IMG/VR virus record: IMGVR_UViG_2645727539_000015
Reading direction: 5' to 3' (one strand)
From: a virus
Taxonomy: Duplodnaviria > Heunggongvirae > Uroviricota > Caudoviricetes
Length of the DNA stretch: 18,384 nucleotides
The notes below the pieces were generated by a model. The model was not told the origin of the DNA. It saw only the letters and a program-made list of their open reading frames with translations, and did no database searches. Numbering within the stretch: position 1 is the first letter of the stretch; each line of letters opens with the position of its first letter. Below, in pieces: positions 14,820 through 17,350 of this stretch. A program made the position numbers and the translations under genes.

Positions 14820-17350
14820 GAGAGGAGGGCTGGACCAGCCTGTTTCAGGCGGTGGCTGAGCCCTTTTCCGGCGCCTGGCAGCAGGGCGTGAAAGCCGATC
14901 CTGAAGCCGTCCTCTCCTTTCATGCGGTGTTTGCATGTATTTCGCTGATATCCCAGGATATCGCCAAAATGAGGCTGCGTCTTATGCAGACGGATGCGCA
15001 TGGGATACGCAGGGAAACGCGCCGGGGGGATATTGCCCGCCTCTGTCGTCGCCCCAATGCGCAGCAGAACCGCATTCAGTTTTTTGAACTGTGGCTGAAC
15101 GCCAAACTGCGTCACGGCAATACGGTAGTGCTGAAAATCCGTAATGCCCGGGGGCAGATCAAAGAACTGCGTATTCTGGACTGGAACCGGGTTGAACCTC
15201 TGGTGGCGGATGACGGCGAGGTGTTCTACCGCATCACGCCGGACCGGAACTGTGGGATCACTGAGGCGGTGACGGTGCCTGCCCGGGAAGTGATCCACGA
15301 TCGGTTTAACTGTTTTTTTCATCCGCTTATAGGGTTGCCGCCGGTGTATGCCGCCGGGCTGGCGGCCACGCAGGGGCATCATATTCAGGAAAATTCGACG
15401 TCTTTTTTCAGAAATGGCGGCAGGCCGTCCGGGGTGATTGAGATCCCCGGCAGTATTACGGAAGAAAATGCGAAAAAACTGAAGAGCAACTGGGACAGCG
15501 GGTATACAGGCGAAAATGCGGGGAAAACGGCCATTCTGAGCAACGGGGCAAAATACAACCCCACGACGTTTTCACCGGTGGATGCGCAGACGGTGGAACA
15601 ACTGAAGATGACCGCTGAAATTGTCTGTTCGGTGTTCCGTGTCCCGGCCTACAAGATTGGCGTGGGACAACCGCCTTCCAGTGACAATGTGGAGGCGCTG
15701 GAGCAGCAGTATTATTCCCAGTGCCTGCAGACGCTGATTGAGTCCATTGAGCTGTTACTGGATGAGGCGCTGGAAACGGGGGAAAACGAGAGTACGGAAT
15801 TTGATGTCACCACGCTGCTGAGAATGGACAGTGAGCGGCGCATGAAAACGCTGGGGGATGCGGTGAAAAATACGCTTCTCACGCCCAATGAGGCCCGTAA
15901 ACGGGAGAACCTGCCGCCCCTGGCCGGCGGTGATGCACTGTATCTTCAGCAGCAGAACTACAGTCTGGAGGCGCTGTCCCGTCGTGATGCCCGTGAAGAT
16001 CCGTTCGCGTCGACCGGGAAAACGGCCTTAGCGCAACCGCCTGACGGCGCATCTGACGGTAATAAGGCAATCAGTGAAACAGAGCATGATGCGGTGAAAG
16101 CGATGTTCAGGGGGGATACTGCGAAAATGACGGAACGGGAACTGTCCATTATCCGTGCGCTGGGTGAAGAATTTTCCGCAGTGCTGGCGGATTTACAGCG
16201 CACATTTGAGGGGAAAATAGCCGCGCAGGCACAAACGTTTGAAGAAAAACTGGCTTCTCAGTCTGTGGTATTACAGAAGTGCGTGACGGGTGATGATGTG
16301 CGTCCGATGCTTGAGCAGATGGTGAAGGACGCAGCAAGCCATATCCCTGTTCCGCGTGATGGTCGTGACTATGATCCGGATGTACTGCAGCAGGCGGTGA
16401 ATGATGCGGTCGGGAAAATACCGGTACCGGCGGACGGTAAAAGTATCACCCCCGATGATGTGCGTCCGATGATTGAGCAGATGGTGAAAGAGGCAGTGAG
16501 CCATATTCCTGTTCCGCGCGACGGTCGTGACTACGATCCGGATGTACTGCAGAAGGCGGTGAATGATGCGGTCGCAAATATTCCGCAGCCGGCGGACGGT
16601 AAAAGTCTCACCCCGGATGATGTGCGTCCGATGCTTGAACAGATGGTGAAGGAGGCGGTAAGCCATATCCCTGTTCCGCGCGACGGTCGTGACTACGATC
16701 CGGATGTTCTGCAGAAGGCGGTGAATGATGCGGTCGCAAATATTCCGCAGCCGGCAGACGGTAAAAGTATCACCCCGGATGATGTGCGTCCGATGCTTGA
16801 ACAGATGGTGAAGGAGGCGGTAAGCCATATTCCTGTTCCGCGTGATGGTCGTGACTATGATCCCGATGTTCTGCAGAAGGCTGTTCTGGATGCGGTGAGT
16901 GCCCTGCCGGCACCGCAGGACGGGCGTGATGCCACGGCACTGGAAATACTCCCCGCCATTGACGATCAAAAATCCTTTCCCCGGGGCACGTATGCCACAC
17001 ACCAGGGCGGACTCTGGCGGGCGTATGAAAAAACGCACGGGATGCGGGGATGGGAATGCCTAGTTGACGGGGTGGCGGATATTGACGTCAGCATGACGGG
17101 TGAACGGTTGTTCTCTGTGGTGGTCCGGCAGAGCAGTGGCCAGCGTACGGAAAAAACATTTTCCCTGCCGGTGATGCTCTACCGTGGTGTGTTCAGAACC
17201 GGCGAAACTTACCACCCCGGCGATACGGTGACGTGGGGGGGCTCGTTGTGGCACTGCAACAGTATGACCGGTGATAAGCCCGGAGAAGCTCATTCATCAG
17301 GCTGGACTCTGGCTGCAAAACGTGGGCGGGATGCAGGAGGTGGAAAGTGA
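14765..17350 (+). CDS. portal protein (HK97-family) with a long C-terminal repeat-containing extension (861 aa)
   Basis: The first ~440 aa carry portal signatures (FFRNGGRPSGVIEIPGSITEENAKKLKSNWDSGYTGENAGKTAILSNGAKYNP...VEQLKMTAEIVCSVFRVPAYKIG). The remaining ~420 aa hold 54-aa tandem repeats and a distinct terminal domain. Confidence 0.85.
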   Translation: MWNLLRRTRKNQKSGRDVREEGWTSLFQAVAEPFSGAWQQGVKADPEAVLSFHAVFACISLISQDIAKMRLRLMQTDAHGIRRETRRGDIARLCRRPNAQQNRIQFFELWLNAKLRHGNTVVLKIRNARGQIKELRILDWNRVEPLVADDGEVFYRITPDRNCGITEAVTVPAREVIHDRFNCFFHPLIGLPPVYAAGLAATQGHHIQENSTSFFRNGGRPSGVIEIPGSITEENAKKLKSNWDSGYTGENAGKTAILSNGAKYNPTTFSPVDAQTVEQLKMTAEIVCSVFRVPAYKIGVGQPPSSDNVEALEQQYYSQCLQTLIESIELLLDEALETGENESTEFDVTTLLRMDSERRMKTLGDAVKNTLLTPNEARKRENLPPLAGGDALYLQQQNYSLEALSRRDAREDPFASTGKTALAQPPDGASDGNKAISETEHDAVKAMFRGDTAKMTERELSIIRALGEEFSAVLADLQRTFEGKIAAQAQTFEEKLASQSVVLQKCVTGDDVRPMLEQMVKDAASHIPVPRDGRDYDPDVLQQAVNDAVGKIPVPADGKSITPDDVRPMIEQMVKEAVSHIPVPRDGRDYDPDVLQKAVNDAVANIPQPADGKSLTPDDVRPMLEQMVKEAVSHIPVPRDGRDYDPDVLQKAVNDAVANIPQPADGKSITPDDVRPMLEQMVKEAVSHIPVPRDGRDYDPDVLQKAVLDAVSALPAPQDGRDATALEILPAIDDQKSFPRGTYATHQGGLWRAYEKTHGMRGWECLVDGVADIDVSMTGERLFSVVVRQSSGQRTEKTFSLPVMLYRGVFRTGETYHPGDTVTWGGSLWHCNSMTGDKPGEAHSSGWTLAAKRGRDAGGGK
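16292..16939 (+). repeat. four tandem 162-bp repeats inside the portal ORF
   Basis: The GATGATGTGCGTCCGATG unit start recurs at 16292, 16454, 16616 and 16778 (period 162). Each unit encodes DDVRPMLEQMVKEAVSHIPVPRDGRDYDPDVLQKAVNDAVANIPQPADGKSITP; the fourth copy degenerates in its second half. Confidence 0.9.

Follow-up and report, generated by a model that had tools for sequence, protein, structure and literature searches.

Probable natural fusion of a phage portal gene with a downstream fibre-like gene in Escherichia coli prophages

Portal proteins of the HK97 family normally end at approximately 400-455 amino acids (aa), shortly after the crown and tail, and solved portal structures place the C-terminus within the capsid. 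Segmented trimeric fibres are found in several phages, such as T4 fibritin (the neck whiskers), the phi29 head fibre gp8.5, and the collagen-like decoration protein gp12 of SPP1, and certain tail fibres (Agrobacterium phage 7-7-1 / Milano and gp47 of Pseudomonas phage Pa193) carry tips of the CBM5/12 carbohydrate-binding fold. In the MuF paradigm (SPP1 gp7 and Mu F), a gene located directly after the portal gene encodes a protein that binds the portal and is present in one or two copies per capsid (PMC5576092). The stretch of DNA analysed here (the window, 18,384 nucleotides of the IMG/VR virus record IMGVR_UViG_2645727539_000015, Caudoviricetes) contains an uninterrupted ORF at 14765..17350 (+ strand), which encodes 861 aa and thus exceeds the usual length of an HK97-type portal by 407 residues that belong to the next gene and are added by a frameshift. 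We propose that this ORF probably arose in nature by fusion of two genes that were ancestrally separate and translationally coupled, i.e., an HK97-type portal gene and a gene for a fibre-like protein, designated Ext. The features discussed below are as follows:

12616..14553, + strand: prohead protease (S78) fused to the major capsid protein, upstream in the head module (Peptidase_S78 at aa 48-152, Phage_capsid at aa 386-635)
14765..16126, + strand: HK97-family portal core and flexible tail, aa 1-454 (PF04860, TIGR01537), equivalent to the entire portal gene of relatives, which end here
16110..16115, + strand: G6 tract, whose extra G relative to the ancestral G5 brings portal and Ext into one frame; the tract (AGGGGG) doubles as the Shine-Dalgarno-like element of Ext
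16127..16129, + strand: ATG of M455, the start codon of stand-alone Ext in relatives, overlapping the portal stop as ATGA in the G5 allele and in frame in the window
16127..16291, + strand: N-terminal amphipathic helix region of Ext, aa 455-509 (MTERELSIIRALGEEF...), a helix in the AF2 model, with a conserved M..RELS.I.ALGEEF-type N-terminus in stand-alone homologues
16292..16939, + strand: stalk of four 162-bp (54-aa) tandem repeats, i.e., eight half-repeats (29 + 25 aa) of helix plus [IL]PxPxDG, identified by Tandem Repeats Finder, repeat search, a motif and identity table, and the AF2 model
16940..17347, + strand: conserved C-terminal beta domain, aa 726-861, with a terminal sub-domain of predicted CBM5/12 fold (~aa 805-850)
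17347..17673, + strand: gp6-like head-tail adaptor Ad1 (PF05135 match and annotation in relatives), whose GTG start overlaps the Ext stop as GTGA

Residues 1-454 represent a standard HK97-family portal with full-length profile matches (Phage_portal PF04860 at aa 54-382, E 6e-81, 272.5 bits against a cut-off of 39.1; TIGR01537 portal_HK97 at aa 45-388, 350.6 bits against a cut-off of 112), and the gene occupies the usual place in the head module beside the terminase, protease/capsid, and adaptor genes. The order of the module is TerS, TerL, protease-capsid fusion, a small ORF, portal, Ext, and Ad1, so that the window keeps the portal-Ext-Ad1 synteny within a TerL and protease-capsid module; protease-capsid synteny is conserved across all related loci, and Ext lies between the portal and head-tail adaptor genes in every locus examined. 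The original prediction had placed the portal, the repeats, and a Trp/Gly-rich end domain in one polypeptide, which agrees with the continuous ORF and its terminal sequence. It had described the portion after 16050 as a C-terminal extension of ~420 aa: an extension is indeed present in a single polypeptide, but its natural boundary is M455 (ATG at 16127), its length is 407 aa, and it originated by a +1 G fusion with a separate and conserved downstream gene. A frameshift or stop between the portal core and the repeats, which would argue against an extended portal, is absent from the window but present in approximately half of the E. coli copies and in all non-E. coli relatives examined. The comparison of portal lengths suggested at that time gave 451-454 aa in ~40 more distant relatives (27-69% identity), which share a conserved tail (...AM(L/I)RG(L/F)L.K, then the stop).

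The boundary at aa 455 is marked in several ways. The alignments of phrog_8767 and phrog_2271 begin at this residue, and the G run is the only difference when the window is aligned with split relatives. All of the 15 relatives (51-69% identity) whose junctions were read base by base have the overlapping ATGA start of the next gene, the conserved portal tail, and a Shine-Dalgarno-like AGAGGA or AGGGGA; at the site of the G tract, distant relatives carry AGAGGA, CGAGGA, or AGGGGA. With G6, the window has no portal stop and hence no ATGA overlap, and both the ATG and the Shine-Dalgarno-like element are kept. The change from G5 to G6 thus lets the portal frame continue straight into Ext (...AMFRG-DTAK-MTERELS...). 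In the ancestral arrangement, the portal stop TGA lies within ATGA and Ext initiates at the same ATG; AGGGGG, the pair of Arg-Gly codons located 11 to 17 nt upstream, would act as its ribosome-binding site. G6 in the window would give a 95-kDa portal-Ext polypeptide and, because the ribosome-binding site and the ATG are intact, a free 44-kDa Ext is probably also made through internal initiation.

G5 and G6 are both real and common alleles in E. coli. Among 47 E. coli-type loci, 35 have G5, 11 have G6, and one has G4, and the length of the G run predicts whether the two genes are split or fused (the single G4 variant retains the split frame). In complete E. coli genomes, G6 was detected at 1,338 + 49 places (~1,387 copies), comprising a commoner allele (1,338 places in 752 genomes) and the exact 33-nt allele of the window (49 places in 45 genomes), and G5 was detected at 482 + 708 places (at least 1,190 copies, a lower bound that covers two G5 alleles). 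The deposited genomes of phages YYZ-2008, 2851, and WGPS6 also have G6. Considering that approximately half of the E. coli copies carry G6 and that phage 2851 is reportedly infectious, the fusion is tolerated at the very least, and in E. coli it may be the version that functions.

On comparative grounds, the split two-gene form is ancestral. In 24 further loci (27-59% identity), synteny is kept and portal and Ext are separate ORFs wherever the locus contains both, and the split form is also found in BP-4795, Lys8385Vzw, and Salmonella phage FSL SP-016, which were recovered as phage particles or isolates (Lys8385Vzw was plaque-purified; PMC7946995). The reverse order of events, with the long fused protein as the true ancestral portal and the two-ORF versions as frameshift pseudogenes, would agree with the PGAP label of G5 copies ('phage portal protein, frameshifted'), with GenBank records that list such copies as pseudogenes, and with phrog_2271, which models an 859-aa form. 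However, it is contradicted by the comparative data and appears highly improbable: all non-E. coli relatives examined are split, with a clean ATGA overlap and a portal C-terminal peptide that is conserved in the split frame; the split form occurs in phages obtained as particles or isolates; and the stand-alone Ext family is very large. It is even harder to believe that G6 in the window is a homopolymer sequencing or assembly error; a single-base homopolymer difference in an 18-kb draft contig might invite this reading, but the allele counts in complete genomes, together with the three deposited phage genomes, rule it out for practical purposes. Both forms might instead be interconverted or co-produced by a dedicated mechanism, either phase-variable slippage of the G tract or a programmed -1 frameshift in G5 (at G_GGG_AUA or CGA_AAA_UGA, with the upstream Shine-Dalgarno sequence as stimulator), in which case portal and portal-Ext would both be normal products. 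An upstream Shine-Dalgarno sequence stimulates -1 frameshifting in B. subtilis cdd, and a reading of the G5 sequence indicates that a -1 shift anywhere in the 36-48-nt overlap would produce a fusion and, at the G run, the exact G6 product. In addition, G6 alleles occupy at least four distinct positions in a neighbour-joining tree, and they occur on three local haplotypes that each have a G5 counterpart, but heavy prophage recombination can account for such scattered positions. We consider a dedicated mechanism very unlikely. On one sequence background, there are hardly any G4 or G7 alleles (3 and 0 places, compared with 708 for G5 and 1,338 for G6); the G tract is therefore not hypermutable, and the spectrum of tract lengths expected of a phase-variable contingency locus was not found. 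A family-wide programmed -1 frameshift is also rejected, as conservation of the G run and of the A_AAA slip site does not extend to distant relatives, most of which lack them, and some loci (L058, L060, L062, and L072) have no overlap between the two ORFs.

Under the favoured reading of two fused genes, the added part belongs to a family that mostly exists on its own. The search for Ext homologues yielded 5,575 representative clusters (50% identity) at E<=1e-3; of the best 150 representatives of the family, 148 lack a portal core and stand alone. Residues 455-861 align end to end with one of them (P0137; 54% identity, 1-404 against 1-400) and likewise with hundreds of others, and phrog_1289, the stand-alone Ext family, matches with E 5e-197. 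An N-terminal helix, a stalk with [IL]PxPxDG motifs, and a C-terminal domain of ~140 aa, which constitute the family architecture, are all present in the window. A portal-Ext fusion was independently formed in a distant lineage (P0246). Literature searches found no studies on Ext or on the portal-Ext fusion. The Pfam accession PF28083.1 is listed (precomputed) on the E. coli proteins.

The single-sequence AF2 model of the full 407-aa Ext was poor (pLDDT 44) and usable only for the N-terminal helix, which covers Ext residues 3-51 at a pLDDT of ~75 and, being amphipathic, may be an attachment or oligomerisation element. Ext looks like a fibre, consisting of an N-terminal helix, a variable stalk, and a beta tip with a CBM5/12 carbohydrate-binding fold; in support of this, a further AF2 model reached a mean pLDDT of 89.5. 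The terminal sub-domain is predicted to adopt the small beta fold characteristic of CBM5/12, and the similar motif Y..G.Y...GG.W is found in another segment at ~aa 738-770. CBM_5_12 (PF02839) scored 17.7 bits in the window protein, below the gathering cut-off of 26.2, and 29.8 bits in the homologue P0140, above it (24.7-24.8 bits in four others), and a sequence-profile search of the PDB matched only short CBM-like stretches. The same fold and motif (Y/W-x-x-G-D-x-V-x-W-x-G-x-x-W) occur in the CBM5/12 tips of the tail fibres mentioned above; however, the Ext gene is located in the head module between portal and adaptor rather than in a tail-fibre module. Collagen-like tracts, situated in the stalk or at the C-terminal end, are frequent among homologues (at least four Gly-X-Y triplets in 67 and at least six in 37 of the 150 family representatives), implying trimers, and no run of three or more such triplets was found in the window protein. 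T4 fibritin, phi29 gp8.5, and SPP1 gp12 resemble Ext in having an N-terminal attachment element, a stalk of short helices and loops (Gly-X-Y in the Ext homologues), a globular tip, and variable length, but share no detectable homology with it.

Tandem Repeats Finder placed the stalk repeat at 16292-16881 (162-bp period, 3.6 copies, 92% matches, score 963), and by register there are four copies, starting at 16292, 16454, 16616, and 16778. Each unit had been predicted to consist of two related half-repeats ending in IPxPxDG(R/K), which is what we observed: the half-repeats are 29 and 25 aa long, eight [IL]PxPxDG[RK] motifs lie at aa 527-714, and the AF2 model has one short helix in each half-repeat. 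The expected number of four copies was also found, but they are not near-identical, since pairwise DNA identity is 94% between copies 2 and 3, 88-89% between copy 1 and either of these, and 75-78% between copy 4 and the rest. The suggestion that copy number differs between strains holds for the relatives, which have 1-6 units (most commonly four) and an Ext part of 245-515 aa; the protein cluster of the window protein also includes full-length members of 807 aa. The number of helix-PxPxDG units in the stalk may change via unequal recombination.

Where Ext acts is a separate question, and our answer is a tentative one: Ext could be a fibre of low copy number, located at the portal vertex or neck, which binds surface glycans reversibly and, in the fused allele, is tethered to the C-terminal tail of the portal. 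With the portal C-terminus inside the capsid, a fibre fused to it should likewise lie inside, and this would conflict with a role as an external fibre unless Ext is also produced in free form. Alternatively, Ext may be a minor head protein that is bound to the portal inside the head and corresponds in position to SPP1 gp7 and Mu F, with its N-terminal helix on the portal crown; it would perhaps be ejected with the DNA, the CBM-like tip meeting peptidoglycan, and the fusion would hard-wire a natural contact. The Ext gene, like those of SPP1 gp7 and Mu F, directly follows the portal gene, with translational coupling of Ext to the portal in every locus whose junction was read, and a modular build with a constant N-terminal and a variable C-terminal part appears to be shared as well, so that portal association would be expected by analogy. 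The frequency in E. coli of fusion to the internal C-terminus of the portal and the independent fusion in P0246 point in the same direction. On the other hand, Pfam scans of the window protein and seven homologues gave no match to the MuF domain (PF04233/PF06152), on which basis membership of Ext in the MuF family is rejected, and MuF proteins lack both the repeat or collagen-like stalk and the CBM5/12-fold tip that Ext has. Exposed fibres are typically marked by collagen-like tracts, a stalk of variable length, and CBM5/12 tips, and outside E. coli only one of 148 representatives of the stand-alone family is fused. An internal location is thus rather unlikely in our view. A bolder and quite improbable extension would make the portal-Ext fusion a normal virion component, rather than an accident: G5 would yield some of it when ribosomes shift by -1 close to the portal stop, with the Ext Shine-Dalgarno sequence as stimulator, and G6 would hard-wire it, and Ext would be a new class of portal-tethered fibre with carbohydrate-binding tips, held at the crown inside the head and released or ejected at infection.

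In RefSeq/PGAP and several GenBank records, the fused protein serves as the reference and the ancestral G5 two-gene form is flagged as a frameshifted portal pseudogene. At least 1,190 G5 prophage copies in complete E. coli genomes may be mislabelled, which bears on which Stx-type prophages count as able to form particles. Published inventories of "defective" EHEC prophages list certain portal genes of this head-module type among the defective ones, perhaps owing to the same effect. NCBI gives members of the phrog_1289 family the names 'phage portal protein' or 'gp6-like head-tail connector protein', and the PHROG, NCBI, and UniRef names of Ext ("portal protein", "gp6-like head-tail connector", and "Carbohydrate binding domain") appear to have been transferred from neighbouring genes or fusions with no functional evidence. 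Ext is a widespread uncharacterised gene with misleading names, and its architecture suggests an unrecognised virion appendage or portal-associated protein. Closely related prophages in which Ext is free or else covalently linked to each of the 12 portal subunits constitute a natural experiment, and comparison of the free and fused forms would allow tests of what cargo the portal C-terminus can carry and of where Ext is located.

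The window represents the late region of an E. coli prophage of the lambdoid type, and its 861-aa ORF is a natural single-base fusion of a portal gene with the gene of a widespread, uncharacterised fibre-like protein (Ext, residues 455-861). The region also encodes a DNA methylase, three tRNAs, a NanS-p-like esterase, a lysis cassette, an HNH endonuclease, TerS, TerL, a protease-capsid fusion and, 3' of Ext, a gp6-like adaptor (Ad1):

2010-2259, three tRNA genes (Met-type CAU, Arg-UCG and Arg-UCU)
2357-2860, TerB-domain ORF
3498-5411, esterase-type ORF, 637 aa (DUF1737, SASA sialate O-acetylesterase domain and DUF6645)
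6253-6786, endolysin
7084-7686, antirepressor-like gene (KilAC/ANT domain) within the lysis cassette, between endolysin and Rz spanin
7920-8414, Rz spanin
12616-14553, prohead protease-major capsid fusion, a 645-aa single ORF 5' of the portal gene (Peptidase_S78 at aa 48-152, capsid at aa 386-635)
14598-14819, 73-aa ORF overlapping the portal start by 55 nt, conserved in nearly all related loci
14765-17350, + strand, portal-Ext ORF, uninterrupted, 861 aa
17347-17350, overlap of the Ext stop with the Ad1 start (GTGA, in which GTG starts Ad1)

The "portal" genes of long-tailed Stx1/Stx2c phages and their relatives, among them YYZ-2008, 2851, 1717 and BP-4795, share 92-97% identity with the portal-Ext gene. 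The protease-capsid fusion and the gene order are unusual, yet kept in every related locus; a Pfam search gave no match for the 73-aa ORF. The esterase-type ORF looks like the NanS-p type of Stx-phage late regions, and no stx-like ORF was seen at the tRNA/TerB-ORF site, which we take to be the stx position in related Stx phages.

The protein is WP_052904978.1, whose 18,384-bp contig is the window in full, and it matches Pfam Phage_portal at aa 54-382 (E 6e-81) and TIGR01537 portal_HK97 at aa 45-388; as the original prediction held, core, repeats and terminal domain lie in one continuous frame, and the Trp/Gly-rich terminal sequence agrees with the one quoted there. Tandem Repeats Finder detected a 162-bp period at 16292-16881 (92% matches, score 963), and counting in register gives the expected four copies, each with two half-repeats, of 29 and 25 aa, that end in [IL]PxPxDG[RK]. 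The near-perfect nucleotide identity claimed for the copies is an overstatement: copies 2 and 3 are 94% identical in DNA, copy 1 is 88-89% identical to these two, and copy 4 reaches 75-78%. Copy number does differ between strains, the stalk in E. coli copies ranging from 1 to 6 units, each of 54 aa. The interpretation as an extended portal is right for the single polypeptide of the window, but the extension is a separate downstream gene joined to the portal by one base.

Many relatives are annotated with two ORFs: the portal is 454 aa long, and the other ORF starts at the position of M455 in the window. As judged from the alignment, the single cause of this difference is the length of a G run at the junction: the window reads TTCAGGGGGGAT (six Gs, G6, 16110-16115) and the split relatives have five (G5). 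In the G5 frame, the portal ends in ...AMFRGILRK at a TGA embedded in ATGA, whose ATG starts the second protein (MTERELS...), whereas in the G6 frame it continues through ...AMFRG-DTAK-MTERELS.... Run length predicted the split or fused state across 47 E. coli-type loci, of which 35 have G5, 11 have G6 and one has a G4 substitution variant that preserves the split frame.

The ATGA overlap is common to 15 relatives at 51-69% identity, in which the portal C-terminal peptide ..AM(L/I)RG(L/F)L.K, followed by the stop, is also conserved. These relatives carry a purine-rich element (AGAGGA, CGAGGA or AGGGGA) 11-13 nt 5' of the Ext ATG, and thus the portal Arg-Gly codons double as the Ext Shine-Dalgarno sequence. 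The portal end in the G5 allele (AGG-GGG-AUA-CUG-CGA) includes rare codons, and tRNAs of such phages are thought to read rare codons of these kinds; the correspondence holds here if the CAU tRNA is an AUA-reading Ile tRNA, and the rare Arg codons are taken to be accounted for by the Shine-Dalgarno role. In 24 more loci (27-59% identity), gene order is kept, and every locus that includes both portal and Ext has them as separate ORFs. The split form is also found in three phages recovered as particles or isolates: BP-4795 (ORF58, 454 aa; ORF59, 461 aa), Salmonella phage FSL SP-016, and Lys8385Vzw, a plaque-purified phage propagated on E. coli WG5 (PMC7946995). On the comparative evidence of these relatives, loci and phages, the two-gene arrangement is ancestral and functional and the fusion in the window is derived (+1 G). 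Since its stop overlaps the Ad1 start, Ext in the ancestral form has translational coupling to each of its connector-gene neighbours: to the portal through ATGA and to the adaptor through GTGA.

Among 5,426 complete E. coli genomes, 1,239 contain the junction region, at 2,902 places in all and in no more than seven copies per genome. In counts with allele-specific 33-mers, G6 occurred at 1,338 places (752 genomes) on the commonest background and at 49 places (45 genomes) as the exact window allele, and two G5 alleles were found at 482 and 708 places (371 and 367 genomes, respectively). The fusion thus makes up about half of all copies in a collection heavily weighted towards STEC clones, and these counts rule out a sequencing artefact as the source of G6. 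A hypermutable phase-variation tract is likewise ruled out, since on the commonest background G4 was found at three places (three genomes) and G7 at none. In a neighbour-joining tree G6 falls at no fewer than four places, and the three local haplotypes that carry it each have a G5 counterpart too; prophages of these kinds are mosaic, so this scatter is explained equally well by recombination and by recurrent mutation.

Used as query in an exhaustive search, residues 455-861 matched 5,575 representative clusters at E<=1e-3 (641 at E<=1e-30). Portal core was absent in 148 of the best 150 representatives, the exceptions being an E. coli fragment and P0246, an independent portal-Ext fusion of 1,237 aa from a distant lineage, whose stalk has about 25 'LPDI..MV..A...I.LP.PEP' repeats and no PxPxDG units but whose C-terminal domain is that of Ext. 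The N-terminus of family members (214-860 aa) is an amphipathic helix, their C-terminal domain of about 140 aa is conserved, and their repeat motifs number 0-20. Runs of at least four consecutive Gly-X-Y triplets, present in 67 of these 150 representatives (at least six in 37), point to trimeric, collagen-like stalks. Pfam CBM_5_12 scored 17.7 bits in the window, under the cut-off, and 29.8 bits, over it, in the homologue P0140. Many fused E. coli proteins carry the precomputed Pfam accession PF28083.1.

Ext is a conserved member of this head module with a fibre-like architecture and a carbohydrate-binding fold at its tip. Since its gene neighbours, portal and adaptor, both form 12-mers of the connector, we infer that it is a low-copy virion component, presumably a portal-vertex or neck fibre and a putative binder of surface glycans. 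Against an external fibre, solved portals have their C-termini inside the capsid, which should place a fibre fused to them internally; the fusion is nevertheless common and is also carried by phage 2851, which is reportedly infectious. Of two readings, the somewhat likelier is that the Shine-Dalgarno sequence and ATG, both intact, would still give rise to free Ext, with the tethered copy tolerated. The other, less likely but still a serious rival, is that Ext may be natively internal and portal-bound in the manner of SPP1 gp7/MuF (PMC5576092), although Pfam found no MuF domain in the window protein or the homologues scanned. Mechanistically, programmed -1 frameshifting could conceivably give the G5 allele a fused product as well, but such a frameshift is not conserved in relatives.

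The single base also governs annotation. PGAP treats G6 copies as intact under the name "phage portal protein" (as at 1206-3791 of one RefSeq E. coli locus, L110) and turns each G5 copy into one pseudogene, "phage portal protein, frameshifted" (1206-3628 and 1206-3790 of L111 and L112), and GenBank phage records are divided in the same way. Stand-alone Ext homologues of 290-420 aa (P0287-P0402) from Klebsiella, Enterobacter, Salmonella, Serratia and Pseudomonas go under the names "phage portal protein" or "gp6-like head-tail connector protein", although neither Pfam domain is on record for them; these names are probably transfers from neighbouring genes. The comparative data indicate that the "frameshifted" and the portal/connector labels alike are artefacts. 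An analysis of the Sakai prophage pool (PMC2669165) scored the portals of Sp6, Sp9 and Sp12, all from the group with a head region of this type, as defective, and these scores possibly reflect the G5 state.
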